A program made the position numbers and the translations under genes. 64,000 nucleotides of DNA, from positions 864,001-928,000 of the forward strand of contig CP060223.1 in the NCBI GenBank assembly GCA_023898465.1, in the 5' to 3' direction. Shown here piece by piece: positions 21,601 to 63,567 of the stretch; position 1 is the first letter of the stretch; every line of letters begins with the position of its first letter. The notes below the pieces were generated by a model. The model searched no databases. It saw only the letters and a program-made list of their open reading frames with translations, and was not told the DNA's origin. The stretch comes from Candidatus Nomurabacteria bacterium (GTDB taxonomy: Bacteria > Patescibacteriota > Patescibacteriia > HK-STAS-PATE-3).

Positions 21601-22625
21601 TCAAAAGCCTTACGAATGGTTTGCACTACGTCATCTTGCTGCAATGTAAAGACGGCAATATAGCGACCGGGTGTATGAAAATTTTCCCTATCAAATGACA
21701 CTAGGGTTTGCTGACCCCCGCTCACTTTTTCTGCAGTAGTATGTACTGCGGGGTGATATTCCTTATCATCAGGATCGATGAGAGAAACGGATTGAATGTT
21801 GCGTTGGAGTGGCTTCACACCCAAGAAGCCAAACGATGAATTTTCTTCAGTTTGGATTTTTACTTGCGGAGTATCGAGTGAGAAAAAGGTTGTCGCGTCC
21901 ATTTGCACATATTCACCTAAGCGCAAGCTTGTCTTTGCTTCTCGTCGATAGGTGAGTTGGAGGCGAGCGCCATCAAAATAGGCTGTAGCTGAGTCAAGCG
22001 GCGGCTCTGGAATATATCGTACGCGCACCATAAAATCCTTCGCTTGGGTAAGTGCATCAATGCCATCGATGTGATAAGTCCAGTATCCACTGTGTCGTGC
22101 ATTACTTTGCTCTTCCAGAAGCGCAAAAGAGTCTAGGGAAATCCAATTAATTCCACCGTCAATTGAATACGCAAAAACTACAATATCCTCGTTATTTGCA
22201 TAAGTATTTGCCGCGAAAGAAAGATCAAGCATGGCATCAATATCAACTGCATCAGCTGGAATAGCATCAGAAAAAGCAAAATCCCCGCAGGTCAACCAAG
22301 CCTCGCCATTCTGTAAGGGCTGCGCATCTATGTTATCAGGACTGTTTTGAAACCAAGCCGCATTCTCACGCGTAAAATCGCCTGCATCAGCAGATCCAGG
22401 CAAATCAAGCTCCTGGGCTCCTTCGGTAAAATTCCATCCTTCGCAAGACCCGGGATTAAGTTGGACTGCACTTTCGCCAGCTACCAACATTTTTTGTCGG
22501 ACGTAGTAGGCGCTCTGAAAATCAACCGGCTGCAATGCGGGCAAAAGAAATAGTCCAGCCACAAGCAGGGTAAAAATACCAAGCAATCCTAGCGCTTGGC
22601 CGGTATGAACTACCTGCGTATGCAT
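12669..22625 (-). CDS. Giant (~3,318 aa) secreted surface protein: signal anchor, duplicated N-terminal domains, ~5 tandem ~180-aa beta-helix-like T/S/G-rich modules, and a C-terminal domain homologous to the three small paralogs
   Basis: A single uninterrupted minus-strand ORF. The ATG start is chosen at MHTQVVHTGQALGLLGIFTLLVAGLFLLPA; the track start at 22697 is a TTG. Recurring module ...L(T/S)L(N/D/S)G(T/I)ISG(S/A)G...Y...T..FPTTGT(I/F)S(A/V)NLRFD.... A ~110-aa segment (CS(T/A)SFTPG(I/V)DFA...NVGRSDAS) is duplicated. The last ~170 aa align to the paralogs at 9273-12609. Confidence 0.7.
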   Translation of the reverse strand: MHTQVVHTGQALGLLGIFTLLVAGLFLLPALQPVDFQSAYYVRQKMLVAGESAVQLNPGSCEGWNFTEGAQELDLPGSADAGDFTRENAAWFQNSPDNIDAQPLQNGEAWLTCGDFAFSDAIPADAVDIDAMLDLSFAANTYANNEDIVVFAYSIDGGINWISLDSFALLEEQSNARHSGYWTYHIDGIDALTQAKDFMVRVRYIPEPPLDSATAYFDGARLQLTYRREAKTSLRLGEYVQMDATTFFSLDTPQVKIQTEENSSFGFLGVKPLQRNIQSVSLIDPDDKEYHPAVHTTAEKVSGGQQTLVSFDRENFHTPGRYIAVFTLQQDDVVQTIRKAFDWGVVIMNDARSVYQLNDTAQLSLGFLDNNGRTICNADVHIETISPSGVHNDYALTEGIQRSEDCSPDVVSSVADYLASFPLDEVGEYRIRLDASSYAGTYRAQSTLEVVEQTNLQLTRIAPTRLVPKQSYDVFLEFVVGDDYIGTVVEPIPANLKISSVGQGGKQIGDELQWSVVWKKGESASLSYVVKAPEQTPQSFVLGPLRADGFAEFRNNQTYGSSWSEQHAWQLHVDERTNETPIFIPLPSSDDLSLETETQVIQADEEPVMKLKAMHPVETTKQSPVSTVLVKEVKLRTPVGEEIQSDPSEVLTAEGELELRFSEADFGRPGKYEVEIATTALGEDKVLTQTFYWGVVAVNVRQSLAPTNTAQKVHLAVVDDLGRTVCDANIDVTVTDPSGSASVFHTSDATIEKNPDCVDKSVTNEPDYSFFYTGTQEGEYQVDVQATTKDGTRQIQDHFSLADVVPFSVQRTEFPTRIYPPAQYPVQFTVQTSEGFQGIVTEEVPDTFAISAISGDGTVSDPQDGHRIIQWEVDWLAGEEYTLAYTFDAPNVSPFFYQLGPLQFTRRDESIAFTEARLWQIAADATKTWDGDGTTASWSECANWNNDTCPGTSDDIIFDGTSNDNSDWDTSAVATVASISVTSMSGSLTITKTPVTISGNFSHTSSGAVVYAGSASISVGGNYTMTSSGGLTSNTSTLTMTGTSNTFNTDQQHYNVVINPSSTGTITANTNDFTISNALTVQTSDTFSLDSAVFITLSKTTGTVLTLNGILSGSGWVSYASTTNFPTTGTISVNLRMDTTNGNPRLSGRTYGGSVEAYNSGSTARVMYMGSSSGQTVTIDGDLWINAAGTNYQYIYGTTYNPTVNIGGDLLYIGVGSGQEYILTGSGTWTVGGDIDFSNGNLSSSSGNLFVMTGTSNTIVADNRTLRNLSISPSSAGTITMQTSDFSISEVLTVSSNGELVIDSGRTVNLIRTTGTAISLDGTISGSGKVIYKTSELFPTTGVISALLQYYSGSADRTMTARTYQGDVEYYQGGLSSYKLILGSAASQTITINGSFLIYAQSSSATIDGSVWNPDLVIGGDLDREDGPGSFEHITTGSGTWSIGGNLDLRDPGATNIATGHTFVMTGTSGNIWANGATFYDLEIDPSSAGTITINDGVAVDNTLTVAANDEAALQSGSYFDLYNDTGTSLVLNGTISGNAYVYYYTPATFPSTGTMDANVFFYPTTADHTIPGRTFGGSIYIQADCGLSSREVNFGSAGSQTITIDGNLEIEGYSNCSVTVDAATNDPDVNIGGDLDFITGAGAGTETITSGAGTWTVSGSADFTNGTYTIEGTNTLVMDGSGTLTIAGNIYKNLTLSGTVTLSSESHNITGNLNMAGGTVTAGTSTVVMSGTAVTIVGGGNTLYNLTIDALFGGATTLQTSDLTVSGTLDVGSNDQLVIDTGRTLTHSGSTLTLSGIISGAGLLIYTSTTAFPTTGTFSANLRFDATSNNQTMSARTYGGYVELYNNAPFGGTTSVTGGSGSIIVSDNFTLNAANGSDIHFYGSTNNPTVTIGGDIDFTGVGTGTEDLEPGTGAWSVAGSIDFQDGTYSVVSTADLKMTGTAETFSGGGNSLYNFTVDPSSTGTITVQTSDVEITNSLVVSSSDTLSISSGRTVTWSGSSFTLSGSITGAGRLTVATTTTIPTGGTLSSVVRFDAGAGGNMTMPARTYGNDVEVYTNGTSFTSVLVDMGAGTHTISGSLIVTVEDNQVVALTGDNNDPDVSITGDVSYVKLGSSNGQIVTGAGTWSVSGNIDLSDGTTTISTGNILEMDGTSKTLTSATTALQNFDVTGGSISNTDAMDVNGTFDVSAGSFTADANVNMNIAGDFTLASGGLFTGPTGSGTMIFDADVFAYDNNATKQNQGNVQVGTSPDSLNLGTDMTYLSLTIAAGDTLYTNGYEMDINSTFTINGTLDATDDVETDETTINVAGSMIFGGSATFTADQSTVILDGSSTQTITSDGESFYNLSITNSSGSYSGCSTSFTPGIDFADSATVSNNYTITTNNVKVEYNSGSTYTITNINWSASTGNDIIFRNSNLSSGTWLLDVSGTQTAVSYVNVGRSDASSGDQIDASDGTNTDCLNNTNWLFAAGINLSGIAYTNEGTTPLDGSGVNKTVTLKVNGSGSYTDEITDSSGAWSITSVPANSTDIVTVYLDDETEEATTVLVSDGVAKTDIDLYQNTVIVRADTGSISNANLNTGDSGDDDIKYSVSGSAATFDSGFELHIWNGDTYAPAGNITTQAADVHIDNSTLSVGSSFVILGGGWNNDGTFSHTSGYVLFQAGSGTYDIDADGTGSDFFNNVEFNDSGGGAEWNLLTDMDVNGYLTIYGGTFDFNGANTLYVAGNFTNNDTIIESTGNLVLNATSGTQYIDTSEASSLAATNLNNLELNDAGGSATYKTIYPLDINGDVNITGGTFDLSGPTAWYLTSDTSGYGSSWRMKPVDPSGSSNDTTKCDDTGTGQSGYCTFVPGNTSTTWDGSIPSAITNTGWMLNNGQPITGTFAAGTWSVDITTVYTAGSCSYGRRQVNARLWKADADLANPVAISGWKNVNISTGTNDYAIFITGIPEETLTNQVLYVEFAIWLAIPSCGGSSPTQVALRVNEGGTKQKVNSTAFSPELTLAGDWANSDTFTHGNSRVVLDGSSLQTLSGTMTSASSFYDLAIENSSGSYSGCSASFTPGVDFAAAATTAGEYTITTSDVKVEYNSGSTYTMNDINWDGQTYGSEIIFRNSSLGSGTWLLDVSGAQTVKFVNVGRSDASGGDLIDSSHVSNIDCQNTTNWDFDAVQFSISDTSVGFGPLSTSGARYATGDASGTGTKTSAHTISVRTSADDGYALTYYGPLLTSGSDDINAATISNDDDGAPGSEQFGIACTTDGDATIASGYDATSPADYSFVANTTTTIASEAGSTATENFSIYYIANAAGTTPAGSYSTDITYVVTGKF

Positions 22626-22710
22626 CTGCAATTGTGCCTTCGGATTTTTCTTTGTTCTTTGACGTGGTGTCGGCACCGAAGCCCCCTCGAAAAGCAAAAA
22701 AAGTTGTTAC

Positions 22711-33948: not shown

Positions 33949-34692
33949 CTACTGCAATGTTTTCCATAATGCAGAAAAGATATTCTGCTGAGTTGAAGTA
34001 ATGGCCTGATCTTCAATAATTATCCCGCGTGGCTCTTTATTCTCCCCCACGGTAATCATGGCAATCTTTGCACCATAGAGTATGGTATAGGTTGGCGCTC
34101 CTTCCTCTTTGCGTAACCAACGACGCTGATCAAGTCCGTGCAGCTCGCCACCTTCACCAATAGCAATGACCTTCACTCGAATACCAGCGGCGATACGCTG
34201 TTTGGTAAAATCAGGCCATGCTCGGTGAAGATAAGGACGGATGGTGGAAGAGGAATACACCGCGTACTCTTTCACATCCTGCTGAGCAACCACAGCAATA
34301 AGATCTTCGAGCACCGTTTTCACCCCTCGATAAGCTTCATAGTAGCGAACTACCGGCTTCTCATCACCCCGAGCATACATTGAACGCAGCTCCGGCAACG
34401 CTTCAGCTAGTTCTTCACTTGTGGTAATGAGCGACTGACGTTGTTCAGCGAGCACTTTTTCTAATACTATCGGATCCTCGCAGACAAAATGCTTATGCTG
34501 ATCCTGATGGAAGTAGCTCACCACACCCAACTGAAGCAAGCCCTTCAGGATGTCATAGGTTGTACCACGATTAATTTTTGCGTCAAGAGCAATCTTTCGG
34601 ACAGGTGCTGGCCCTGACTTCAATAAGGCAAGGTAGATGGCAATTTCCTTTTCATCCAGGCCGATTTTTTCTAATAATGTTCCGATTTGCAT
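33949..34692 (-). CDS. TrmB family transcriptional regulator
   Basis: Winged HTH (LLEKIGLDEKEIAIYLALLKSGPAPVRKIALDAKINRGTTYDILKGLLQLGVVSY) plus a C-terminal sugar-binding-type domain. The start is chosen at the internal Met; the track ORF reaches 34800. Confidence 0.6.
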   Translation of the reverse strand: MQIGTLLEKIGLDEKEIAIYLALLKSGPAPVRKIALDAKINRGTTYDILKGLLQLGVVSYFHQDQHKHFVCEDPIVLEKVLAEQRQSLITTSEELAEALPELRSMYARGDEKPVVRYYEAYRGVKTVLEDLIAVVAQQDVKEYAVYSSSTIRPYLHRAWPDFTKQRIAAGIRVKVIAIGEGGELHGLDQRRWLRKEEGAPTYTILYGAKIAMITVGENKEPRGIIIEDQAITSTQQNIFSALWKTLQ

Positions 34693-34870
34693 AATACAGA
34701 GATTGATTGAGTAGCGGGGACATTGTGGCTGAATCAATATATTTGTCAAGCAAAAAAATACTGACAAGTGTTTTGCTAAATATTTAGCCCTGTTTTTCAA
34801 TATTATCCTGTGTTTCTTTTGTCAATTTTTTGCCAACAGCTACTTTATTACGATTGACGACCAGGATAAA

Positions 34871-50992: not shown

Positions 50993-51068
50993 GCGCGCCT
51001 AGCTCAATGGTTAGAGCAGTCGGCTTATATCCGACCGGTTCCAGGTTCGAGCCCTGGGGCGCGCACCA
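50993..51068 (+). tRNA. tRNA with anticodon TAT (Ile, AUA-reading), CCA encoded
   Basis: Acceptor gcgcgcc/ggcgcgc, anticodon stem gtcgg/ccgac, loop cuUAUau, T-loop ttcgagc. Confidence 0.7.
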
Positions 51069-53229: not shown

Positions 53230-54714
53230 GTGGCTATGACGCATTCAGTACTTAGCTCTCGACTTACTCAAGTTCCCATTCTTCCAGCACTTCGAAACCT
53301 GCAGAAGGCCTATGCATCTGCCGAGGTATATGTTGTTGGTGGAGCAATACGCGATGCCCTACTCAAACGAAAGGGTGGAGATATTGACTATCTTATTCGA
53401 AATGTTTCTTATGCAAATCTCGCGCGCCATTTGCAAAAGAGTGGCAGCGCTCAACTTGTTGGCAAACATTTTGGTGTTATCAAATATTCTCCACGTGGAA
53501 CAAAAGAGATATACGATATTGCCCTGCCTCGCTTAGAGCACTCTTTGCACATGAGTGGGGCCTATCATGACTTTGCGGTGCAGTCAGATCCTAAACTCCC
53601 AGTTGCTGAGGATCTCAAGCGACGCGACTTCACTATTAACGCCATGGCCTGGAATATTCATAGCGGCGAATTTGTAGATCCAAGCAATGGTCTGGCTGAC
53701 CTCGTCGCAAAAAAAATCCGGACTGTAGGTAACCCGAAGCAACGCTTCCAAGAAGACTACACTCGTCTACTTCGCGCTCTACGTTTTGCAGTTGAGCTAG
53801 ATTTTCAAATTGAGGATTCTAGCTGGCGCATTTTGAAACAACTGATTGGTAACCTTAGTAACCGCGTACTCCCACGTGAAGCAATTGCGGCTGAGCTAGT
53901 AAAAATGTTTGCTCGAGCGCCCCTGGCTACGGTTGACGCACTAGAAAATTCGGGTGCGCTACGCGTGCTCATGCCTGAAGCGCATGAAATGAAACGAGTT
54001 GTCCAGCCCGTGCTTCATCATCGCGAAGGATCAGTCTGGCAGCATGCCCACCTCAGCTTAGAAGCGTACACACACCCTGAATTCCGTCGGCGTTTCCCTA
54101 AATTCAAACCTGATGCTGAGCTCTACTTCGCAACCTGGATGCACGACATTGCCAAATCCGTCACTATGAAGCATGTCGGTTCGCACAGCACAAAGCCGCA
54201 CTACAAAAATCATGCTTCTGTAGGCGCGCATATGGCCGTCCGTATTGCTGAACGATTAAAGCTATCTTCAGCCGGTGGTCAAATTCTTCCACGCCGACTC
54301 GATTGGCTGTTGAGAAACCACCTTGTCCGCCTCAAAGTACATGAGCTAGATTTAGATGAAGTAGAACATCTTTTTTGCAACCCCAATCTACCAGGCGAAA
54401 AATTACTCGCTTTAAATTTTGCAGATGCCTGGGCATCAATTCCAGAAGAGGGCGGGCATGACCTCCGTGACCTTGATGCACTAATGAAAAAAATTGCTCT
54501 AGTAAAAAAACGTGGATTCAAAAAAGGTAAGCCGTATCACCTACTAAGCGGAAAAGACGTCATGAAAGGCATGCAAGTTTCTGCTGGACCTCAGGTCGGT
54601 AGTTTCCTCAGCCTGGTTCGCTATCAGCAACTAGAGGGCAAGTTGCTAAGTAAAGCGGCCGCGCTAAAATATCTTGCGCAATATTACCAATCAAAGCTAA
54701 AGAAATCCTCATGA
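53230..54714 (+). CDS. cca: CCA-adding enzyme / poly(A) polymerase family nucleotidyltransferase with HD domain
   Basis: GGAIRDALL...GDIDY head motif. RRDFTINAMAW. A later HD region. Confidence 0.75.
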   Translation: MAMTHSVLSSRLTQVPILPALRNLQKAYASAEVYVVGGAIRDALLKRKGGDIDYLIRNVSYANLARHLQKSGSAQLVGKHFGVIKYSPRGTKEIYDIALPRLEHSLHMSGAYHDFAVQSDPKLPVAEDLKRRDFTINAMAWNIHSGEFVDPSNGLADLVAKKIRTVGNPKQRFQEDYTRLLRALRFAVELDFQIEDSSWRILKQLIGNLSNRVLPREAIAAELVKMFARAPLATVDALENSGALRVLMPEAHEMKRVVQPVLHHREGSVWQHAHLSLEAYTHPEFRRRFPKFKPDAELYFATWMHDIAKSVTMKHVGSHSTKPHYKNHASVGAHMAVRIAERLKLSSAGGQILPRRLDWLLRNHLVRLKVHELDLDEVEHLFCNPNLPGEKLLALNFADAWASIPEEGGHDLRDLDALMKKIALVKKRGFKKGKPYHLLSGKDVMKGMQVSAGPQVGSFLSLVRYQQLEGKLLSKAAALKYLAQYYQSKLKKSS

Positions 54715-55649
54715 ACATTGCCGCTATAGAAAAAGATATCGAAGTAGACGCCGCACATGACGGGGCGCGTTTAGATCGCTTCCTGGTTGATCATATTGAG
54801 GGCATTTCACGCGCTGAGCTGCAACGTTGGATTAAGCAAGGTGAGGTTCGAGTGAATGGGAAAAATGCTATTCCTCATCAAGCGCTGAAAGTTTGCGATC
54901 GCATTCACATCGAGCACCAAGCATCCGAACAACACACGCCGGATGCTCTAGCTGCTATTCAAGTGCTAGCCGAAGAAAAAGATTTCCTCATCATCTCAAA
55001 ACCTTCTGGCGTCCTCATGCACGCCACACCAAATTCGCACGAACAAACTTTAGCTGACTGGCTACTCGCGCACTACCCCGAGTTGCATGGTGTCGGCGAA
55101 GATCCTACACGACCTGGCATTGTGCATCGCCTTGATCGTGACGTATCCGGCCTCCTGCTCGTTGCCCGCACTCCAGACGCATTCATCTATTATAAAAATC
55201 TTTTTCAGGAACGGGCAATGGAAAAAGTATATATTGCCTTAGCTCACGGGAGCGTTGAAGAAGATGGAATGATTGAACTGCCCATCTCCCGTTCTCAATC
55301 AAACCGCCGGAGGATGGCAGCCCGAGCTGATGGTATAGGACGTCCGGCAATTACCGCCTATCATATTTTGAAGCGCTATCCTCATCTGACCTTACTTGAG
55401 GTGAAGCCAAAGACTGGACGCATGCATCAAATCCGCGTCCATCTCAATGCCATTGGCCACCCGATTGTGGGCGACCGTCTCTATGTAAAAAAGGCCAGCA
55501 AGGCCACCCAACTGCGACGACCCTTCCTCCATGCCCATAAACTAGCCTTTGTCGACCAAGAGGGCAAAGAAAGGGCCTATACTCTAGCAATACCCCAGGA
55601 ATTACAGGAGTATCTGGATACGCTTGACGAGAAACACGAAAATAGCTAG
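54711..55649 (+). CDS. rluD: RluA-family pseudouridine synthase (RluD-like, with S4 domain)
   Basis: S4 RNA-binding N-terminus. Catalytic [15 protein letters not shown]. Confidence 0.8.
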
Positions 55650-55689
55650 ACTGAGGGCCGATTTACATTTTCATTACTTTAGAAAAAAC

Positions 55690-56025
55690 ATGTCAGAAAC
55701 ACTAGCTCCGCTGCATGACAGCCTTCCTGAAGTGAAGTCAGGTCAGCAGGTCCGAGTCCATCAAAAAATCAGCGAGGGGGACAAGGAACGCAATCAGGTT
55801 TTTGAAGGCGTTGTCTTAAAGCGCAGTGGCGGCAAAGGCCCATCAGCCAGTATTACTGTTCGCAAAATTGGTGCTGGTGGCATTGGTGTAGAACGCATCT
55901 TCCCTCTTCATTCACCTGTCATCACCAAGGTTGAAGTAGTGGGTGAAGCAAAGACACGACGAGCAAATCTCAGCTATCTCCGTAAGCCTCGCGCCAAGCA
56001 GCTGAAGATGAAGTCAGTCAAATAA
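55690..56025 (+). CDS. rplS: 50S ribosomal protein L19
   Basis: [33 protein letters not shown]...[21 protein letters not shown]. The start is set at MSETLAP. Confidence 0.85.
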
Positions 56026-56028
56026 GTT

Positions 56029-56112
56029 CCTGCGCGGGTGGCGGAACCCCGAACCACGCAGGGTTCGGGAGTCCTGCACCTCACAAGGTGCAGGGTGGGA
56101 GTAAACATTATG
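56029..56112 (+). repeat. Partial duplicate of the tRNA-Leu(GAG) 5' end (17 nt) plus two GC-rich hairpins preceding the GIY-YIG ORF
   Basis: ctgcgcgggtggcggaa is identical at 56030 and 56386. It is followed by cccgaacc-acgca-ggttcggg and cctgcacc-tcacaa-ggtgcagg. Confidence 0.55.
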
Positions 56113-56122
56113 TACTCTTACT

Positions 56123-56371
56123 ATGTCATTCGTTTATATCCTGCTACTTAATAATCAAGAGCTCTACGTCGGATTTACTGCCGACCTTAATCGACGACTT
56201 GAAGAGCATCAACTAGGTAGGAGTGGTTACACAAGTAAGTACCTACCAGTAAAACTACTTTTTTATGAAGCCTTTACCAGCGAAGTGGATGCGCGGCGAA
56301 GAGAGAAATATTTAAAAACGAGTAAAGGTAAATCAACGATACGGATGATGCTCCGTACTACACTGCAGTAA
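56123..56371 (+). CDS. GIY-YIG nuclease family protein (82 aa)
   Basis: FVYILL...LYVGFTADLNRRLEEH...Y. Paralog of 30154..30429. Lies immediately 5' of tRNA-Leu. Confidence 0.7.
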   Translation: MSFVYILLLNNQELYVGFTADLNRRLEEHQLGRSGYTSKYLPVKLLFYEAFTSEVDARRREKYLKTSKGKSTIRMMLRTTLQ

Positions 56372-56388
56372 TATATCTGCGCGGGTGG

Positions 56389-56474
56389 CGGAATGGTATA
56401 CGCGCTAGCTTGAGGTGCTAGTGGCCGCAAGGCCTTGGAGGTTCAAGTCCTCTCCCGCGCACCACGTGAAGCGT
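56389..56474 (+). tRNA. tRNA-Leu (anticodon GAG), CCA encoded
   Basis: Acceptor gcgcggg/cccgcgc, loop uuGAGgu, long variable arm. Confidence 0.75.
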
Positions 56475-56575
56475 GGTGCTAAATAGCTGAGCAAAATTAG
56501 ACATACCACCGTAGCAAAAGCTGCGTTGCTTTTAAATTGGATAGACTCTTCACTGCTTAAACTCAAATGGTCTTC

Positions 56576-56797
56576 TCAGATGAGTATTAGCAAAACACAC
56601 ACAAGAATTTGCCCTAGGAGAAGTCCTGCACCAACCTGACGACGACCATCAATAATCCGTGCAAATCCAAGTGCAAAGAAAACTATAAAACCGCCTGATA
56701 CAAAAACTAAACTAGCAGGCGCTTGCATGAGCGCTATGTTCCATGCAAAAAACTGATAGAGAAAACTGAGAACGCAAAAAATTATTACTTTTTTCAT
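56576..56797 (-). CDS. Small two-TM membrane protein (73 aa)
   Basis: Hydrophobicity only. Confidence 0.3.
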   Translation of the reverse strand: MKKVIIFCVLSFLYQFFAWNIALMQAPASLVFVSGGFIVFFALGFARIIDGRRQVGAGLLLGQILVCVLLILI

Positions 56798-56923
56798 AAA
56801 AGGAAATGGACATCGTATTTGTATATATTTAATCGCACGCCTAGCTCTTTTGTTTCATGAAAGCTCGCTGTATTAATTCCAAAATCATGCTACTATGCTA
56901 GCAAGTAATTTTACTCTACCTCT

Positions 56924-57163
56924 ATGAAAAAAATTCTCGCTACCTTTTCATTCATACTTTTAGCCAGTCCATCCATTGCCTCAGCCCACACTGGCGTAGA
57001 ACACACAGGGACTTTTTGGCATATTTTTCTCCACCTGCTTAGCGAACCAGATCACATCTTCATAATAGGATCTATCGTTATCCTGGGTTATGGCGTACTG
57101 CTTCATACGAAACCACAGAGGAGTTTATCTCGTGTTCCACGTGGAAGCATTGCTAAGTATTGA
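56924..57163 (+). CDS. Small secreted/membrane protein (79 aa) with His-rich motif
   Basis: Signal peptide MKKILATFSFILLASPSIASA, HTGVEHTGTFWH, then a TM segment. Confidence 0.3.
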   Translation: MKKILATFSFILLASPSIASAHTGVEHTGTFWHIFLHLLSEPDHIFIIGSIVILGYGVLLHTKPQRSLSRVPRGSIAKY

Positions 57164-57203
57164 CTTCCCTAGGCTAATCGCGTAATAATCAGGCCTGTCC
57201 CAT

Positions 57204-57280
57204 GGGCGGTTAGCTCAGTTGGTTAGAGCGCCTCGTTTACACCGAGGAGGTCGGGGGTTCGACTCCCTCACCGCCCACCA
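57204..57280 (+). tRNA. tRNA-Val (anticodon TAC), CCA encoded
   Basis: Anticodon stem cctcg/cgagg, loop uuUACac. Confidence 0.8.
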
Positions 57281-57355
57281 CACTTAGCGTGGCCGACCAT
57301 ACAAACCATGGCTAGTAATTGAGGACGCGCTCTATAGATGTAAGTAGTGACTTTT

Positions 57356-57364
57356 TGCTATACT
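57356..57364 (+). promoter_or_regulatory. Extended -10 (TGcTATACT) upstream of ugd
   Basis: Located 32 nt upstream of the ATG at 57396. Confidence 0.35.
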
Positions 57365-57395
57365 CATCAGGTACTAACTCCTAACTTTTTATTTC

Positions 57396-58682
57396 ATGAA
57401 AATATCTGTAATTGGCGCCACCGGCTACGTCGGTCTCGTCTCAGCAACCTGCCTTGCCGAAATTGGCCATACGGTAACTTGTTTTGGTAGAAACGCAGAA
57501 GCGATAAATAAATTACAGCGTGGCAATATTCCTATTTATGAACCCGGCTTGAACGAACTAGTCAAAAAGAATATAAAGGCAAAGCGTCTTCGCTTCACCA
57601 CGAATTTTGATCTAGCAGTAAAAGAAAGTCTCGCAATCTTTATTGCCGTAGGAACACCTCCGCTACCAAACGGTAAAGCAGACCTACGCGCCGTATTTGA
57701 AGTTGCACAACGTATCGGGCAAAGCATGACCGACTATAAGGTTATTGTTGATAAAAGCACTGTGCCAGTTGGAACGGGCCAAGAGGTGAAGCACATTATT
57801 GCAAAGGAATACTCAGGAAGATTTGATGTTGCTTCATGTCCAGAATTTTTGCGCGAGGGTTCAGCTATTGAAGACTTCATGCATCCAGATCGAGTGGTTA
57901 TTGGTACTGATTCTGAAAAAGCAAAAAGGGTTATGCTTGATATTTTCAAACCCCAGAAGACTACTAAGCTCACTACAAATATTGAAAGTGCCGAACTTAT
58001 TAAGTATGCTTCCAATGCTTTCTTGGCCACCAAAATTTCATTTATCAATGAGATATCCAACCTTTGCGATTTAGTCCGGGCTGATGTTGAGGAAGTCGCT
58101 CGAGGTATGGGCCTAGATAAGCGTATTGGACAAAGTTTCTTAAAGGCTGGAGTGGGATACGGCGGCAGCTGTTTCCCTAAGGATGTGAGTGCCTTAAAAG
58201 AACTTGCGGGATCTAGTGGCTATGACTTTCAGTTACTTAAGGCTGTCATTGAGGTAAACAATACACAACGATCAGTCGTCATTGCAAAAGCAAAACAACT
58301 ACTTGGTTCCTTGCGGAACAAACACATCGGCGTACTTGGACTGGCTTTTAAGCAAAATACTGATGATGTACGGGAGTCTGCTGCCATAGACATTATTAAA
58401 CTGCTGCAAAAGGCTGGTGCAAAAATTACTGCTTTTGACCCAGTGGCTACAGAAAAAGCAAAAAGTAAGCTTACTCGCGTAAAGTATGCCAAGTCAGCCA
58501 AGGAAGCATGTAAGCAGACTGATCTCCTTGTCATTGTGACTGAGTGGCCTGAATTCGCTCAGCTTGATTGGAAAAAAATCCGTCCAACTATGAGACAAGC
58601 AAAAATTGTTGATGGACGTAACCTGCTTGATCCAATAAAGATGCGAGAGTTGGGGTATCAATATCTCAGCGTAGGTCGATAG
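57396..58682 (+). CDS. ugd: Nucleotide-sugar dehydrogenase (UDP-glucose 6-dehydrogenase family)
   Basis: N-terminal Rossmann fold MKISVIGATGYVGLVSA. Catalytic GGSCFPKD. Confidence 0.85.
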   Translation: MKISVIGATGYVGLVSATCLAEIGHTVTCFGRNAEAINKLQRGNIPIYEPGLNELVKKNIKAKRLRFTTNFDLAVKESLAIFIAVGTPPLPNGKADLRAVFEVAQRIGQSMTDYKVIVDKSTVPVGTGQEVKHIIAKEYSGRFDVASCPEFLREGSAIEDFMHPDRVVIGTDSEKAKRVMLDIFKPQKTTKLTTNIESAELIKYASNAFLATKISFINEISNLCDLVRADVEEVARGMGLDKRIGQSFLKAGVGYGGSCFPKDVSALKELAGSSGYDFQLLKAVIEVNNTQRSVVIAKAKQLLGSLRNKHIGVLGLAFKQNTDDVRESAAIDIIKLLQKAGAKITAFDPVATEKAKSKLTRVKYAKSAKEACKQTDLLVIVTEWPEFAQLDWKKIRPTMRQAKIVDGRNLLDPIKMRELGYQYLSVGR

Positions 58683-58744
58683 TAAAAACCCTGCCACTTC
58701 ACTCAAAGAGATAAAGAGACAGGGTTTCAACAGATCACAACTGC

Positions 58745-58960
58745 CTACGCAGTTGATTTGTCGTCGGCGACTTCGTCGCCACTGCTCACGATCTTAGGCT
58801 CATCCATCTTCTGCACCAGCTTTGGCCTGGGCTTTGGCACATACGCCGGAAACTCCCTCTTGCCACGACGATTGGCTATCAGCATAGCGCCGAGCACAAT
58901 CGCTCCTGCCCCCAGGATCGCCAAGAAGAAAAGTACCGGGTTCTGAAGTAGAGACGACAT
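58745..58960 (-). CDS. Small single-TM protein (71 aa)
   Basis: Hydrophobic N-terminus. No family recognised. Confidence 0.3.
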   Translation of the reverse strand: MSSLLQNPVLFFLAILGAGAIVLGAMLIANRRGKREFPAYVPKPRPKLVQKMDEPKIVSSGDEVADDKSTA

Positions 58961-59073
58961 GATTCCTCCTCACCTCGATTGTTAACCCCCGCATTTACTC
59001 TAGCCTAAAACGACTTTGCTCCTACGTCAAATACCCGCTGCCGACGGGCTATGAAAAATGCAGCAAAGCAATT

Positions 59074-59241
59074 TTAGCGTTTATCTTTTAAGCGCCCTCG
59101 TTTCTTCAACGCTTCACGGAGCACCCACTCGATTTGACCATTCAGGCTGCGCAATTCATCACTAGCCCACCTTTCGAGTGCCTCTAGGGTTGTGCTATCA
59201 ACACGGAGCAAAAATGGCTTTGTCCTCCTTTGTACCGCCAT
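59074..59241 (-). CDS. Arc/MetJ-type ribbon-helix-helix DNA-binding protein (55 aa), not in ORF track
   Basis: Manual translation gives MAVQRRTKPFLLRVDSTTLEALERWASDELRSLNGQIEWVLREALKKRGRLKDKR. AAGGAGG lies 8 nt upstream. The ATG sits 2 nt after the SPFH stop codon. Confidence 0.5.
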   Translation of the reverse strand: MAVQRRTKPFLLRVDSTTLEALERWASDELRSLNGQIEWVLREALKKRGRLKDKR

Positions 59242-59243
59242 GC

Positions 59244-60113
59244 TTATTGGTACAAGCTTCCGGTATTCACCACCGGTTGCGCATGACGATCACTGCAAAG
59301 CACAACCAAGAGATTGCTCACCATGGCAGCCTTTCGCTCCTCATCTAATTTTACAACGTCTTTTTTTGAAAGCTCTTCAAGCGCCATCTCTACCATGCCC
59401 ACCGCACCTTCAACTATTCTCGTTCGGGCGGCTACCACCGCACTTGCCTGCTGGCGCTGGAGCATTGCACTGGCAATCTCTGGTGCATAAGCTAAGTGAC
59501 TAATTCGCGCTTCAATAACCTCAACACCTGCTTTTGCCAAACGGTCCTGCACTTCAGCTTTTAGTTTTTCAGCTACGTCATTTGTGTTCCCACGCAATGA
59601 GACCACACCTTCTTGATGAGCGTCATAGGGATATGAGGTAGCCATGTTACGGAGAGCAGCTTCGCTCTGTACATGGACAAAATTTTCATAGTCATCAACA
59701 TTGAACATTGCCTCAGCAGTATCGACAACCTTCCAAACTATGACTGCAGCAATCTCGATGGGGTTACCATCAGAATCATTTACTTTTAACTTTCCGCTTT
59801 CAAAGTTTCGTATGCGAAGAGAAATTCTTCGTCGACTTGTAAAAGGATTCATCCAACGAAAGCCTGACTGTTTTTCTGAACCTATATACTTACCAAACAA
59901 CTGCGCAACTGCAGCCTCATTTGGATTTACAATAAAAAAACCACTTGTACAAAAAAGAACAGCTATCCCTAGGAGTATGGAAACAATTACTAGCCAGATG
60001 GTATTCGCAGTTGCGGCATAAATAAAACCAAACGCCGCCAGACACAAGAGCACAAATAAGGAAGGAGCAGCAACAAAGCCATTAGTCGAACGAACAGCTT
60101 TTTCTTTAATCAT
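59244..60113 (-). CDS. SPFH/band-7 (stomatin/HflC-like) domain membrane protein
   Basis: N-terminal [18 protein letters not shown]...[11 protein letters not shown] core. Confidence 0.8.
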
Positions 60114-60174
60114 AGTAAAAAGGTAAATGATATCAAACTGATATCAGTGAACCTCTTATCTGTACATTTGTCAA

Positions 60175-60205
60175 GTTAAAAAAAACTACTACGCAGATGT
60201 AGTAT
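60175..60205 (-). terminator. Rho-independent terminator downstream of tRNA-Ala(TGC)
   Basis: Minus strand: tactac-atctgc-gtagta followed by gTTTTTTT. Confidence 0.5.
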
Positions 60206-60262
60206 GTTTTCTCTGGTGGACCCTACCCCGCTGGGCGGGGTCAGCTCTGTATGTTGAGATCT

Positions 60263-60338
60263 TGGTGGACCCTACCGGGCTCGAACCGGTCACCTCCGCG
60301 TTGCAAACGCGGCGCTCTACCAAATGAGCTAAGGGCCC
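60263..60338 (-). tRNA. tRNA-Ala (anticodon TGC), CCA encoded, G3:U70 present
   Basis: Loop uuUGCaa. Acceptor gggccct/agggtcc with a G3·U70 wobble. Confidence 0.8.
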
Positions 60339-60626
60339 TTAATTCAGACTATTCGAAACAGGTGAAAAAATATCCCGTAGAAGAGATGGAACAAATCCAG
60401 TCAGTGTAAGAAAAACAATGAAAATCATGAGGATACCGAGAAGCTTTAAAAAAATTCTCGTACCACCCTCGGTACCGAGATGCTGCTCAGCCCATTCGAT
60501 CCGACCAAACCAGTTCATGAAAAAATCAGTCTTGATCACAAGTAGCGCACCTATCAGTATAACGATTCCACCAATTAAATATCGCATAACTCTTCTCGTA
60601 TTATTAACGCCCCCCCCTAGCACCAT
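60339..60626 (-). CDS. Small membrane protein (95 aa)
   Basis: Two TM helices. Confidence 0.35.
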   Translation of the reverse strand: MVLGGGVNNTRRVMRYLIGGIVILIGALLVIKTDFFMNWFGRIEWAEQHLGTEGGTRIFLKLLGILMIFIVFLTLTGFVPSLLRDIFSPVSNSLN

Positions 60627-60730
60627 CGAGTACTTGAGCTTGAAAAGCTAAGTACGAGATGAAAAGCGGCACGTTTGCAAAGGGCGCAGTCCGGCTTGGC
60701 CGGGCAAAGCCTGGAGCAAACGATGACGTG

Positions 60731-60807
60731 TGGTGGGCGATCCAGGAATCGAACCTGGGACCTCGTCATTATCAGTGACGCGCTCTAACCAACTGAGCTA
60801 ATCGCCC
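60731..60807 (-). tRNA. tRNA-Ile (anticodon GAT), CCA encoded
   Basis: Loop cuGAUaa. Acceptor gggcgat/atcgccc. Confidence 0.8.
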
Positions 60808-60854
60808 ATGTTTGTTCCCCGTGGAACATGATGTAAAACTACATAACAACGCGG

Positions 60855-60940
60855 TGGTGCCGCCGGTCGGACTTGAACCGACATGAGGTTACCCTCAAGG
60901 GATTTTAAGTCCCTCGTGTCTACCATTCCACCACGGCGGC
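60855..60940 (-). tRNA. tRNA-Leu (anticodon TAA), CCA encoded
   Basis: Loop cuUAAaa. Long variable arm. Confidence 0.75.
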
Positions 60941-61043
60941 AAGCATTCAAAGCGAATACATGCCATATTTCAACACAAGAATGTCATTCATGCAAGACCA
61001 GCAGGAACCACATGCTAACACGAGTATTTCGGAAAAACAAGAC

Positions 61044-61721
61044 TTACTCGGGTTTATTAAACTCAATCTGCGAAGTAGACTCTTTGCTTCTGCGACTTTT
61101 AATAAACTCCCAGAGGGCGGGCAATAATGAAATAGCAATGATAGCAACTACGACAAAACTAAAATTCTCCTGGATAAAAGGAAGCCTGCCAAAAAAATAT
61201 CCTCCGAACAAGAAAATGCTGACCCAGAGGAATGCTCCAAGCACATTATAAGTGAAAAAGTGACGATATCGCATTAAGCCAACACCTGCAACAAAGGGAG
61301 CTATGGTACGAACAATTGGAACAAATCTCGCAATGACAATTGTCTTTGCTCCATACCTTTCATAAAAACGATGGGTACGGTCAAGATGCTCCTTCCTTAG
61401 CCAACGAGAATTTCTCAACTCATATACTCTTCGACCAAGGTGCTTCCCTATCCAATAGTTTAATCCATCGCCTAACACAGCCGCAGTAAACAGCAAGGCA
61501 AAGAGAAGTATAATATTTAGTGACCCTGCATCAGACAGCGCTCCAGCGGCAAAAAGAAGCGAATCCCCTGGCAAGAAGGGCATAATCACAATGCCCGTCT
61601 CAAGGAAGACAATACCAAAAAGAAGCGCATAGACCCAGGTGCCGTATGTGCTTATAGCTATTCCAAGGCTTTCATCTAAGTGGAGAAAGTATTGAGAAAT
61701 AGTGTGTAATAGCTCGTTCAA
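61044..61721 (-). CDS. DedA/SNARE-associated family membrane protein
   Basis: VYALLFGIVFLETGIVIMPFLPGDSLLFAAGAL core motif. Confidence 0.8.
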   Translation of the reverse strand: MNELLHTISQYFLHLDESLGIAISTYGTWVYALLFGIVFLETGIVIMPFLPGDSLLFAAGALSDAGSLNIILLFALLFTAAVLGDGLNYWIGKHLGRRVYELRNSRWLRKEHLDRTHRFYERYGAKTIVIARFVPIVRTIAPFVAGVGLMRYRHFFTYNVLGAFLWVSIFLFGGYFFGRLPFIQENFSFVVVAIIAISLLPALWEFIKSRRSKESTSQIEFNKPE

Positions 61722-61820
61722 CTTGAATTAGATAATTGTTTCAGTATTTAGTCAAAATGTTATTTTATTTTTTTTGGCTAACTTTAGTGAGGCGATGTTC
61801 CTCGAGGAACTTTTTAATTG

Positions 61821-61895
61821 TGGTGGACCAGAGGGGAGTTGAACCCCTGACCCCTGCAATGCGAATGCAGTGCTCTACCACTGAGCTACTGGCCC
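61821..61895 (-). tRNA. tRNA-Ala (anticodon CGC), CCA encoded, G3:U70
   Basis: Loop uuCGCau. Confidence 0.8.
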
Positions 61896-61945
61896 TAGTG
61901 TGTTCCTCGTGGAACAAACGGATGGGAGGCCTAAATTATCTAACG

Positions 61946-62021
61946 TGGTGGACCCTACCGGGCTCGAACCGGTCACCTCTTCCATGCCATGGAAGCGCTC
62001 TACCAAATGAGCTAAGGGCCC
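61946..62021 (-). tRNA. tRNA-Ala (anticodon GGC), CCA encoded
   Basis: Identical to Ala(TGC) outside the anticodon arm. Loop auGGCau. Confidence 0.75.
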
Positions 62022-62073
62022 ATGTGAACTACGGATATTTTAAGCTTCTTTTCTCCGTACCTGCCTCAGCCTT

Positions 62074-62145
62074 TGCCCCCACCATGAATCGAACATGGAT
62101 CCAGGGCTTAGGAGTCCCTTGTTCTATCCTTTGAACTATGGGGGC
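62074..62145 (-). tRNA. tRNA-Arg (anticodon CCT); CCA not encoded
   Basis: Acceptor gccccca/tgggggc. Loop cuCCUaa. There is an A31·G39 mismatch at the base of the anticodon stem. Confidence 0.65.
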
Positions 62146-62325
62146 AGGGGCGGCGGCAGGCAATTTTCTTTTACCCGAGATTTTGTAACTTTTGTAAAAA
62201 GTTATTTTTTTGCTAGCCTTTGCAAAAAATAAGCGTCGTAGAATATTATGTTAAAAATGCATCTAAGTTACGAGCCATTATTACACCAAGTGGCCATTTT
62301 CGCAATGCCTAAAGAGCCAGATCGA

Positions 62326-62379: not shown

Positions 62380-62784
62380 ATGGCACTACTTAATAGAGAA
62401 GAAAAACAATCACAACACATCGATACCGTTATTGGCCGAAACGTTCAGGTTGAGGGCAATTTTAATGGTGAAGGCAATGTAACCGTAGAGGGTACGGTTT
62501 CAGGTACCTTAAAGACAGCTAAAGATCTCATCGTTGGATCAGCCGCAAAGATTAAAGCTGATGTTGAAGCTGAAAACATAAGCGTTGCGGGTGAAATTCA
62601 AGGAAACGTTATCGCACGCGGTAAACTTGAGCTAAGTTCAAGCGCAAAAATAATTGGCAATGTAAAAACCTCAACTTTGTCGGTAGAGTCAGGCGCAGTT
62701 TTGCACGGCAAATGCACTATGAACGAAACGAAAGACAAGCTTGCAACTGATGAAGCGATTGAAATGCCCGCTAAGCTAAAATAA
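62380..62784 (+). CDS. Bactofilin (polymer-forming cytoskeletal protein)
   Basis: Beta-helical repeat pattern NVxVEGxxxGxV.... Confidence 0.75.
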   Translation: MALLNREEKQSQHIDTVIGRNVQVEGNFNGEGNVTVEGTVSGTLKTAKDLIVGSAAKIKADVEAENISVAGEIQGNVIARGKLELSSSAKIIGNVKTSTLSVESGAVLHGKCTMNETKDKLATDEAIEMPAKLK

Positions 62785-62796
62785 GCAGGGCATTGT

Positions 62797-63567
62797 ATGT
62801 ATTGTTACCTGTTTGACACCTTTCTCCGTGAAAGGCAGTACGAAAAAAGCGTACATCGCGTTGAAGCGCGAATCGCTGAGCTTGGCTTACAAGGAAAAAC
62901 TGAGCGGCTCAGCATTCTAAAAAACGCAGGTGAAATAGTTCGCGATGCAGTTAAAAAAGGTGTACAAACTTTTGTTATTGTTGGCGACGATAGCACGATT
63001 CAGAAAGTATTAACCTATGTAGCCGAAGAAAAGGTTACCTTGGGAATTATTCCTCTCGGTACAAAATTAGAAATAGCTGACATGCTTGGTATTCCGCACG
63101 GAGAGGCTGCTTGCGATACACTTTCGAAACGAGTTATTCAATCACTCGATCTCGGCCGAATAAACTCTCAATACTTTTTACGCTCACTCGATATTCAGAG
63201 CAATGCGGTGCAACTTGAAAGTGATCAAGGGTACACAATCTCTCTTCAAGACCCGGAAGCTAAAATTCAAATTGCTAACTTTCTTCCTATGCAAGATGAA
63301 AGGGGAAAAGCAGGCGACCCATCAGATGGAACGCTTGAGGCAATTGTTTCAGCCTCGCCGAAAAAAGGTTTCTTTACCTCGCTTCGTGGACAGTCTGATC
63401 ACCCTAGCATTTTCCCATTCCGCAAAGTAAAAGTGACGTGTCGCGATGCCAGCGTCCCTCTGGTAGTGGACGGGGAAGGGATAGTAAAAACTCCAGCCCA
63501 AATAGAAGTAGTACCACATTGTTTGCGGGTGATCGTCGGAAGAGCGCGGCATTTTGCTCAGGCATAA
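62797..63567 (+). CDS. Diacylglycerol-kinase catalytic-domain (YegS/BmrU-like) lipid kinase
   Basis: TFVIVGDDSTIQKVL...LGIIPLGT (DAGK_cat GGDGT/ PxGTxN variants). Confidence 0.6.
   Translation: MYCYLFDTFLRERQYEKSVHRVEARIAELGLQGKTERLSILKNAGEIVRDAVKKGVQTFVIVGDDSTIQKVLTYVAEEKVTLGIIPLGTKLEIADMLGIPHGEAACDTLSKRVIQSLDLGRINSQYFLRSLDIQSNAVQLESDQGYTISLQDPEAKIQIANFLPMQDERGKAGDPSDGTLEAIVSASPKKGFFTSLRGQSDHPSIFPFRKVKVTCRDASVPLVVDGEGIVKTPAQIEVVPHCLRVIVGRARHFAQA

Follow-up and report, generated by a model that had tools for sequence, protein, structure and literature searches.

Palindromes adjoining tRNA genes in a Candidatus Nomurabacteria genome are probably chromosomal parS sites

What is the short palindrome that recurs beside tRNA genes in the genome of a Candidatus Nomurabacteria bacterium? 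The stretch analysed here, which we call the window, covers 64,000 nucleotides (64 kb) of a 1.08-Mb genome. The initial annotation described in it four copies of a 14-nt palindrome, read either as the operator of a dimeric regulator of tRNA transcription or as a leader hairpin influencing RNase P processing. The four copies are there, with two of the reported positions (60815 and 61903) each off by one: three are exact matches to GTTCCNCGNGGAAC (60814-60827, 61797-61810 and 61902-61915) and one, GTTCCACGTGGAAG (57134-57147), carries a single mismatch. Allowing at most one mismatch, we found five matches to GTTCCNCGNGGAAC in the window where shuffling predicts 0.04, and not one of 100 shuffles gave five, so chance does not account for the set; the fifth match, GTTCCTTGCGGAAC at 58306 within the UDP-glucose dehydrogenase gene, lacks the CG centre and is probably a chance occurrence. 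When the 14-mer is extended by one flanking base per side to the 16-mer TGTTCCACGTGGAACA, the window holds five sites with 1-3 mismatches each, compared with 0.18 expected, and again five were reached in 0 of 100 shuffles. All five lie within 8.4 kb (53487-61916; approximate P = 1.3e-3), and the remaining 55 kb of the window has no such site. The belief that no further copy exists in the 64 kb had overlooked TTCTCCACGTGGAACA, a related site (53487-53502) that falls within the ORF of the CCA-adding enzyme (53230-54714, plus strand).

This intragenic site, about 1.8 kb from the nearest tRNA gene, departs from TGTTCCACGTGGAACA at two positions and preserves the CACGTG core along with one half-site in perfect form; neither it nor the other four sites are assigned a strand. 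The site TGTTCCACGTGGAAGC (57133-57148), whose two mismatches fall at the outer 3' end, likewise keeps the core and one perfect half-site; it falls within the 3' end of a small ORF starting at 56926 and lies 55 nt upstream of tRNA-Val(TAC) (57204-57280, plus strand). The site TGTTCCCCGTGGAACA (60813-60828, reverse complement TGTTCCACGGGGAACA), with one mismatch, occupies the spacer of a minus-strand tRNA pair at 60731-60940, between Leu(TAA) (60855-60940) and Ile(GAT) (60731-60807), and ends 5 nt short of the first base of tRNA-Ile. The last two sites are hosted by a minus-strand tRNA cluster at 61821-62146, composed of Arg(CCU) (62073-62146), Ala(GGC) (61946-62021) and Ala(CGC) (61821-61895). 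The site TGTTCCTCGTGGAACA (61901-61916, reverse complement TGTTCCACGAGGAACA), with one mismatch, lies between Ala(GGC) and Ala(CGC), ending 5 nt before the first base of the latter, while TGTTCCTCGAGGAACT (61796-61811), with three mismatches and a T at position 7 in both half-sites, lies 9 nt downstream of Ala(CGC) and 74 nt upstream of the start of a minus-strand gene for a DedA/VTT-domain membrane protein (61044-61721). One perfect TGTTCCAC half-site is kept in four of the five sites.

The 16-bp inverted repeat is the one found in chromosomal parS sites of the GTTCCAC subtype (P. aeruginosa parS1-10, P. putida, M. xanthus), the general parS consensus being tGTTNCACGTGAAACa, as in B. subtilis. 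Indeed, TGTTCCACGTGGAACA is identical to P. aeruginosa parS2/parS3 (PMC4368675) and to the parS consensus of M. xanthus and P. putida (PMC7022226). The functional parS sets of P. aeruginosa consist mostly of imperfect sites; those with 1-2 mismatches, including parS7 (TGTTCCACGAGGAACG), were all specifically bound by ParB in vitro, and affinity depends on an intact CACGTG core (PMC4368675). As in known parS sets, where 0-3 mismatches occur, the window copies are graded in their mismatches, clustered within a few kb, and both intergenic and intragenic, and the 61901 site differs from PAO1 parS7 in its last base alone. Unlike known GTTCCAC sites, they include no perfect copy (0 of 5), and core position 7 or 10 is altered in three of the five, which could mean that the window sites are weak or that the cognate ParB has relaxed specificity.

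The wider distribution of the palindrome points in the same direction. In a scan leaving two N positions free, about 85% of 39 matching loci carried A..T at these positions and so had the CACGTG core; the flanks were often T and A, and the contigs spanned 27% to 74% GC. Among unrelated metagenome contigs, some have the palindrome flanked by gidB and parA-parB, and others have it next to gidA: locus L098 reads gidB, two palindromes, parA and parB, the latter with Pfam domains ParB_N, HTH_ParB and ParB_C, and the neighbour is gidB in L099 and L125, parA in L108 and L119, and gidA in L101 and L102. A related 16-bp palindrome, the Noc-binding site (NBS, tATTTCCCGGGAAATa) of Firmicutes, is bound by a ParB paralogue and is scattered around the chromosome, whereas the window sites are clustered. 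We take the C at position 7 of the 60813 half-site TGTTCCCC to be NBS-like, and the G at position 2 of the window sites, where NBS has A, to be parS-like; to our knowledge, Noc is restricted to Firmicutes. We consider it very likely, from sequence comparison, that the palindromes are chromosomal parS sites. Seen directly are the match of the sequence to parS, the close grouping of the sites, their exact conservation where orthologous spacers were compared, and the occurrence of the same palindrome in a parAB/gidAB/dnaA context elsewhere; from these we infer that ParB binds the sites in this organism and that they lie near the origin, together with all steps that would follow binding.

The genes for ParB, ParA and DnaA are absent from the window according to Pfam searches of about 49 ORFs, and phmmer with ParB and ParA queries against all window ORFs of at least 70 aa returned no ParB or ParA gene. 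Moreover, there is no DnaA-box cluster and no GC-skew switch in or just beyond the window, so that proximity to the origin is conjectural here. The lack of cognate parAB and oriC in the window, together with the placement of three of the five sites in the spacers of two tRNA clusters (tRNA-tRNA or tRNA-gene), sets this locus apart from known parS regions.

Is this placement peculiar to one genome? We retrieved relatives (L248, L249, L251 and L252 among them) through the DAGK protein, independently of the motif, and found among them the gene order bactofilin-DAGK | tRNA-Arg(CCU), Ala(GGC), parS, Ala(CGC), parS, DedA. In the window the bactofilin (62380-62784) and DAGK-family lipid kinase (62797-63567) genes likewise lie on the plus strand (62380-63567), divergent from the tRNA/parS cluster, with DedA downstream of the 61796 site as in L248 and L249. 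Both orthologous spacers of L248 and L249 contain perfect 16-mers, the one corresponding to the 61796 site lying 79 nt upstream of DedA and the other corresponding to the 61901 site; L251 and L252 carry 0-1-mismatch sites within the same tRNA cluster. The 16-mer is the sole conserved block of the spacers (alignment A1). Amino-acid identity to the relatives is 56% for DAGK and 73% for UGDH, and the surrounding spacers are unalignable; despite this, the orthologous sites retain 15/16 and 13/16 bases. The three further window sites have no counterparts at the corresponding places in relatives, the 60813 site being absent from the same spacer of L248 and L249.

The same comparison bears on whether the sites are vestigial, ParB having been lost in the lineage and the sites decaying. 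Such decay would account for the lack of perfect copies here when relatives have them, since the L248 and L249 orthologues are perfect against one and three mismatches in the window, and it agrees with the window having no ParB gene. We nevertheless regard it as improbable: the two sites are retained while their spacers cannot be aligned, the three sites missing in relatives suggest gain rather than decay, and imperfection is the rule in the functional P. aeruginosa sets.

Beyond these relatives, the DAGK-side gene order is common to all checked relatives having the cluster and that flank, except the L092 group, where an Arg(CCU)-parS-Ala(CGC)-parS module lies 5.4 kb from rnpA-yidD-yidC | dnaA-dnaN. 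The association of parS with tRNA-Arg-Ala-Ala recurs in eight or more separate lineages (27-51% GC), the motif-independent relatives among them. Bactofilin is a conserved divergent neighbour of the cluster in the window, L248-L252, L110, L112, L115 and L122. In M. xanthus, whose parS is of the same subtype as that of the window (PMC7022226), a bactofilin/PadC scaffold positions ParB-parS complexes (PMC5703909); by comparison, the link here is known from gene order alone, with no PadC-like adaptor or ParB seen.

Does the tRNA adjacency instead reveal a function in tRNA expression? The reported proximity is borne out: for all four reported copies the gap to a tRNA gene is 6-56 nt. Just 1.7% of the window is so near a tRNA, and four of the five parS-like sites fall there (P ~4e-7). 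At the same time, 7 of the 11 tRNA genes in the window have no nearby copy. Three copies had been described as lying downstream of a plausible -10 element and ahead of the mature 5' end, an arrangement we could not support: at Val(TAC), 11-12 nt separate the copy from the downstream TTGACT -35 of the predicted promoter (57160-57189), and a consensus scan gave no promoter-like hit in the spacer between Leu(TAA) and Ile(GAT) or in that between Ala(GGC) and Ala(CGC). A palindrome of perfect symmetry adjoining tRNA genes would suit an operator bound by a dimeric transcription factor that is dedicated to tRNA control and distinct from ParB, and a TrmB-family regulator is encoded in the window (33949-34800). 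Yet this is very unlikely given the identity to parS across many phyla, at parAB/gidAB loci, the intragenic copy far from tRNAs, the tRNA genes lacking a copy and the inconsistent placement relative to promoters.

It is equally unlikely that the leader or spacer of the pre-tRNA forms a hairpin directing RNase P or a different processing nuclease. The two transcribed spacer copies have predicted 6-bp hairpins 4-5 nt before the tRNA that leave the cloverleaf undisturbed, and the 16-mer lies 3-5 nt from the tRNA 5' end in at least eight motif-seeded loci, a spacing partly imposed by the search pattern. However, hairpin stability did not differ from that of shuffled controls (z = -0.4 to -1.6), the 57133 copy is not predicted to adopt the fold, and Rfam has no family matching the motif. 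In no lineage did we see the stems change in a compensatory way, the degenerate copies at 53487 and 57133 break pairs uncompensated, and the invariant CG and usual CACGTG would fall in the loop. Furthermore, the distance between site and tRNA ranges overall from 3 to 59 nt (5 nt in the window; among relatives found independently of the motif, L248 has 37 nt and L251 has 28 and 59 nt), and some copies lie on the downstream side of tRNAs, within coding sequence or at par loci that have no tRNA.

An intrinsic terminator or a generic REP/MITE-like repeat can be practically dismissed. The 61797 copy does lie between tRNA-Ala(CGC) and DedA and resembles a terminator on the plus strand, a 5-bp stem followed by the TTTTT that had been noted, but no plus-strand gene ends upstream of it, the remaining copies lack a T-run, the region is not enriched in terminator-like matches (9 against 6.0 expected) and the flanks of the 16-mer differ between copies. 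Since the palindrome matches the parS consensus, recurs in par-locus context, has an intragenic copy and stands at variable distances from tRNAs, we favour a parS cluster over a tRNA operator or RNase P leader hairpin; of the original reading, a non-random, tRNA-associated and probably dimer-bound site stands, and the proposed functions do not.

As parS, the sites would be 16-bp inverted repeats of the tGTTCCACGTGGAACa type, acting as duplex DNA and bound by a ParB (Spo0J) dimer through its helix-turn-helix domain. If they work like the ParABS systems studied elsewhere, ParB loaded there would form CTP-dependent clamps sliding onto flanking DNA, giving a partition complex that ParA would move and that would load SMC condensin. 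Transcription of the sites within pre-tRNA spacers could produce a small hairpin, on which we saw no evidence of selection. The parS pair would have been inherited within the bactofilin-DAGK | tRNA-Arg(CCU)-Ala(GGC)-parS-Ala(CGC)-parS locus of this Patescibacteria lineage.

A centromere role alone leaves the adjacency unexplained. Such adjacency is not general to parS: of 123 perfect 16-mers drawn from viral contigs, not one had a tRNA within 150 nt. The position just upstream of tRNA genes might itself be selected, either with bound ParB as a roadblock or repressor tuning tRNA-Ala/Ile/Arg transcription, or with strong tRNA transcription keeping the sites accessible or setting limits to ParB clamp spreading and SMC loading. 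Besides the association within 60 nt in the window and its recurrence across lineages, this dual role is favoured by a TAnnnT hexamer, noticed by eye 5-6 nt upstream of the 16-mer in several AT-rich contigs, and by P. aeruginosa, where ParB represses the PA0011 and PA0013 promoters adjoining intergenic parS3 and parS4 (PMC5521831). In the window, parS similarly occupies short intergenic regions adjoining transcription units, so ParB bound there may, by analogy, have a side effect on how the neighbouring tRNA genes are transcribed; unlike parS3/parS4, these sites have tRNA genes as neighbours, and a predicted promoter is close by at the Val(TAC) site alone. We hold selection on the position to be a doubtful though not negligible possibility, as the spacing is not conserved and is 37 nt in the closest syntenic relatives, the two spacer sites have no upstream promoter-like site, chance TAnnnT is frequent at 27-31% GC, and one ancestral locus in gene-dense genomes with little non-coding DNA could explain the recurrence without coupling.

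We found no earlier description of parS among tRNA genes, for Patescibacteria or model organisms, in the literature searched. The tRNA adjacency of parS is real and is conserved as gene order in several Patescibacteria lineages. Most likely, parS itself is here an ordinary bacterial centromere, and the unusual point is that related bacteria hold it inside the same small tRNA cluster.

The palindrome found beside tRNA genes in the window, judged by its sequence and its neighbours in other genomes, is very probably part of a parS site, and the feature as a whole a cluster of five such sites, an element of a known kind in a little-studied phylum. Direct inspection of region 56800-62300 placed exact copies of the 14-nt palindrome GTTCCNCGNGGAAC at 60814-60827, 61797-61810 and 61902-61915, and a copy with one mismatch, GTTCCACGTGGAAG, at 57134-57147. 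The copies listed in the initial annotation are real and non-random, with two starts each off by one (60815 and 61903 for 60814 and 61902). A further one-mismatch match, GTTCCTTGCGGAAC at 58306-58319, lies within the UDP-glucose dehydrogenase gene, lacks the CG centre and is probably due to chance. Dinucleotide-preserving shuffles predicted 0.04 matches to the 14-mer, and none of 100 shuffles reached five. With one base added on either side, the palindrome becomes the 16-mer TGTTCCACGTGGAACA (also written tGTTNCACGTGAAACa, and TGTTCCNCGNGGAACA as a scan motif), which at up to three mismatches has five sites in the window against 0.18 expected: at 53487 (TTCTCCACGTGGAACA, two mismatches), 57133 (TGTTCCACGTGGAAGC, two), 60813 (TGTTCCCCGTGGAACA, one), 61796 (TGTTCCTCGAGGAACT, three) and 61901 (TGTTCCTCGTGGAACA, one). 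The first of these, spanning 53487-53502 inside the CCA-adding-enzyme gene, with the nearest tRNA about 1.8 kb away, had been overlooked, leaving the earlier list incomplete. None of the five is a perfect 16-mer and three are changed at core position 7 or 10; a perfect TGTTCCAC arm is retained at four. Towards the right end of the window, a stretch of 8.4 kb (53487-61916) holds all five (approximate P = 1.3e-3); no parS-like site was found in the remaining 55 kb, nor over 3.5 kb past the window on that side.

Viral and metagenome collections were scanned for GTTCCNCGNGGAAC, with its two N positions left free, followed by N3-9 and a tRNA-like start, G N6 TAGCTCA. Matches came from 4 viral and 35 metagenome loci, on contigs of 27%-74% GC. 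The free positions read GTTCCACGTGGAAC in about 85% of the matches, and T and A flanks in most of them complete the 16-mer. About half of the matches lacked any tRNA; these were parS sites that had chanced to precede the short tRNA-like string. One contig (L098) carries gidB, two palindromes 46 bp apart, parA and parB (Pfam ParB_N, HTH_ParB, ParB_C) in a row, and elsewhere the palindrome neighbours gidB (L099, L125), parA (L108, L119) or gidA (L101, L102). The last of these contigs, L102, holds three parS-like sites in 115 bp (8091-8206), with gidA/mnmG on one side and an ABC-F ATPase gene on the other; in them GTTCCAC half-sites are combined with the GTTTCAC half-sites of the B. subtilis form (TGTTCCACGTGAAACA).

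The 16-mer is identical to the perfect Pseudomonas aeruginosa sites parS2 and parS3 (PMC4368675), and it is also the P. putida consensus and, save for the last base, that of Myxococcus xanthus (PMC7022226). ParB of P. aeruginosa binds specifically to each of ten parS sites, which carry 0-2 mismatches, its affinity declining as mismatches increase, and it binds sites with one perfect arm better than those with both arms altered (PMC4368675). The window sites differ in carrying 1-3 mismatches; that at 61901, read as its reverse complement TGTTCCACGAGGAACA, departs from PAO1 parS7 in the last base only. What the initial annotation had observed is largely right and its interpretation largely wrong, the motif being very probably parS.

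The window contains 11 tRNA genes, by ARAGORN and Rfam alike, and the earlier claim of a motif adjacent to them is borne out, since four of the five sites lie within 60 nt of a tRNA, a class of sequence that makes up 1.7% of the window (P about 4e-7). The copies at 60814 and 61902, before Ile(GAT) and Ala(CGC), occupy the Leu(TAA)-Ile(GAT) and Ala(GGC)-Ala(CGC) spacers, and in both 6 nt separate the end of the 14-mer (5 nt for the 16-mer) from the mature tRNA 5' end. The 61797 copy begins 10 nt after Ala(CGC), counted from its CCA end, and precedes the DedA start by about 75 nt; the 57134 copy falls within a small ORF, at its 3' end. This proximity had been read as a candidate operator for a dimeric regulator of tRNA transcription, with three copies placed between a -10 element and the tRNA 5' end. 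We consider such an operator much less likely than parS, since its position relative to promoters is inconsistent: the 57134 copy is upstream of the -35 of the promoter-like site of Val(TAC), TTGACT-N18-AATAAT, and a consensus scan of the Leu-Ile and Ala-Ala spacers turned up nothing promoter-like. Moreover, 7 of the 11 tRNAs have no nearby site, and the site at 53487 is intragenic. Nor does parS in general go with tRNA genes, because none of 123 perfect 16-mers from viral contigs, sampled without a tRNA condition, lay within 150 nt of a tRNA and about half of the metagenome matches are at tRNA-free par loci. The adjacency does recur across Patescibacteria lineages, and the simplest reading is that one conserved locus has been inherited in gene-dense genomes, with no rule linking parS to tRNAs.

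Several other arrangements of tRNA genes were noted in the window and on the contigs recovered. Five contigs catalogued as viral (L088, L089, L090, L097, L104) carry the order Leu(TAA)-perfect parS-Met(CAU)-Arg(UCU), mirroring Leu(TAA)-parS-Ile(GAU) of the window. In this set, exemplified by the 121,814-bp contig Ga0164293_10000014 (IMGVR_UViG_3300013004_000031), ORFs of at least 100 aa cover 34-46% of the sequence under table 11 and about 75-81%, still low, under tables 4/15. A second, unrelated case of parS in a tRNA array is a 57% GC contig (L120 1-12197; also L109, L117) with 18 tRNA genes in 12 kb, where a perfect parS separates tRNA-Arg(GCG) from the tRNA-like sequence that comes after it. 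One tRNA-Ile bears the anticodon UAU, uncommon among bacteria; it occurs in the window (50993-51068) and on related or parS-bearing contigs (L251 18651-18726; L088 8089-8166), and may decode AUA without lysidine. Within the window, the 14-nt 3' end of tRNA-Ala(UGC) on the minus strand, TGGTGGACCCTACC (60214-60227), is duplicated 49 nt downstream of the tRNA (60263-60276), with a GC-rich hairpin between the two copies; the duplication looks like a scar or attachment-site remnant of an element integrated into the tRNA. Far from the tRNA cluster, a single 3,342-aa ORF (12669-22697, minus strand) adjoins genes with Big_13, cohesin and dockerin domains and probably encodes a giant surface protein.

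The initial annotation had also offered a hairpin in the pre-tRNA leader, acting on RNase P processing. For each of the two spacer copies the prediction is indeed a 6-bp stem closed by a tetraloop, at about -6 to -8 kcal/mol, immediately before a cloverleaf that stays undisturbed. Against shuffles the folds show no gain in stability (z = -0.4 to -1.6), and in the predicted fold of the 57133 copy the hairpin is not adopted. Most metagenome and viral copies were found by an exact pattern, so that their stems are invariant by design; the independent test of the stem comes from second copies and from loci reached through the neighbouring DAGK protein (L248-L252). None of the copies examined showed a compensatory substitution in the stem, the window variants 53487 and 57133 break stem pairs, and the sole symmetric double change (ACGT to TCGA, at 61796) falls in the would-be loop, to which the conserved CACGTG also belongs. 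Nor is the spacing to the tRNA constant: it is 5 nt in the window, 28 and 59 nt in L251 and 37 nt in L248. Some copies lie 3' of tRNAs, others within coding DNA or at par loci, and no Rfam family overlaps the motif. A leader RNA hairpin is therefore much less likely than parS. Other explanations of the palindrome were discarded as well: an ECF-sigma -35 (GGAAC) has no matching -10 at the proper distance, a LexA (Cheo) box would have its half-sites in the reverse order (GAAC-N4-GTTC), a restriction-site palindrome is at odds with the variable central four bases, and the terminator and REP readings were likewise rejected.

The closest UDP-glucose dehydrogenase among 5.8 billion proteins is only 73% identical, and there are therefore no close relatives for comparison. 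A search by motif would have been circular, so relatives were sought through the DAGK-family protein adjoining the tRNA cluster, and their contigs were then read. Two of them (L248, L249; DAGK 56% identity) have the gene order of the window, bactofilin-DAGK / Arg(CCU), Ala(GGC), parS, Ala(CGC), parS, DedA, Leu(TAA), Ile(GAT), and both orthologous spacers carry the perfect 16-mer. In an alignment of the spacers with those of the window, the 16-mer is the sole conserved block outside the tRNAs and the flanks are not alignable; sequence, not structure, has been kept at orthologous positions. Their upstream site is 37 nt from Ala(CGC), against 5 nt in the window, and their Leu-Ile spacer has no parS-like site. 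In L248, the nearest of the syntenic relatives, a direct repeat of about 145 nt (~8900-9085 and ~8620-8765; alignment columns 1-150 and 327-470) follows both Ala(GGC) and Ala(CGC); it is absent from the window and matches no Rfam family. In more distant relatives (L251, L252; DAGK 44% identity) a site with one mismatch precedes Arg(CCU) by 28 nt, and L251 has in addition a perfect one, 59 nt ahead of Ala(GGC).

Low-GC contigs recovered by motif (L092/L105/L123, L096, L110, L112, L115, L122) also contain the Arg(CCU)/Ala(GGC)/Ala(CGC) cluster, and each has two sites, perfect or nearly so, apart from the short L122, which has one; the second copies are outside selection by the search pattern. 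A bactofilin gene, usually with DAGK, is divergent from tRNA-Arg(CCU)/parS in the window (62380-63567), L248 (9571-10759), L251 (9602-10759), L110 (600-1773), L112 (1061-2201), L115 (1826-2969) and L122 (931-1317), DAGK being present too in L110, L112 and L115, and this neighbour is kept in Patescibacteria contigs of 27-51% GC. Since bactofilins position the ParB-parS complexes of M. xanthus (PMC5703909), the gene order may, by analogy, be meaningful. Among homologues of the UDP-glucose dehydrogenase, the syntenic L083 reaches no further than the Val(TAC) side, where the palindrome is absent, and L084 and L085 are not syntenic with the window. The palindrome was absent from 80 loci obtained with DedA (up to 59% identity, many phyla, no relative among them), which serve as negative background only. 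The DedA/VTT protein itself (61044-61721, minus strand) has its best genome-contig matches, up to 59%, in many unrelated phyla and not in Patescibacteria, a pattern suggestive of horizontal transfer or of a limitation in how the search works; in L248 and L249 the same position is taken by a VTT-domain homologue of 222 aa. In the searchable literature we found no description of parS or ParB in Patescibacteria, or of parS beside tRNA genes, and the locus of bactofilin-DAGK, tRNA-Arg/Ala/Ala and paired parS, which we did not find there either, is a small new descriptive point.

The imperfect sites of the window, compared with their perfect orthologues, could be weak sites, sites of a ParB relaxed at core position 7/10, or sites in early decay. 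Decay following loss of ParB seems unlikely, because 13-15 of 16 bases are kept while the flanks are unalignable; in addition, the window has three extra sites where relatives have none at the corresponding places. No gene for ParB, ParA or DnaA was found in the window (Pfam; phmmer), nor any DnaA-box cluster or GC-skew switch in the window or 3.5 kb beyond. GC skew is negative throughout, and in the left 46 kb most genes are on the minus strand, which suggests an origin to the right of the window. In the motif-recovered contig L092 the tRNA/parS module is 5.4 kb from rnpA-yidD-yidC / dnaA-dnaN, with the replication origin adjoining.

ParB bound at these parS sites might in addition affect neighbouring transcription, as it does at P. 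aeruginosa parS3 and parS4 (PMC5521831), an extra role that we regard as unlikely here. More doubtful still is a joint scheme for a broad group of Patescibacteria, in which the centromere would be a fixed conserved locus, with a parS pair inside a tRNA-Arg(CCU)/Ala(GGC)/Ala(CGC) unit facing bactofilin, and partition-complex assembly would be mechanically coupled to tRNA transcription. ParB could then act as a roadblock or regulator of the Arg/Ala/Ala tRNAs, or tRNA transcription could shape ParB/SMC loading, and bactofilin would anchor the partition complex in the cell, as in Myxococcus, with ParB possibly relaxed at core 7/10 in this organism.

For motif hunting, the case is a caution that a palindrome enriched at tRNAs in one window can have a different, genome-wide role. 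As parS sites, the five would be ordinary; they most likely mark the place where the segregation machinery of an uncultured, ultra-small bacterium assembles, and are probably a pointer to its replication origin. Bactofilin-DAGK and tRNA-Arg/Ala/Ala with paired parS, on contigs of 27-51% GC, offer a simple landmark of the partition locus in Patescibacteria genomes. The locus also hints that bactofilin and tRNA transcription might be tied to chromosome segregation in a type of cell that is without most known cell-cycle regulators.
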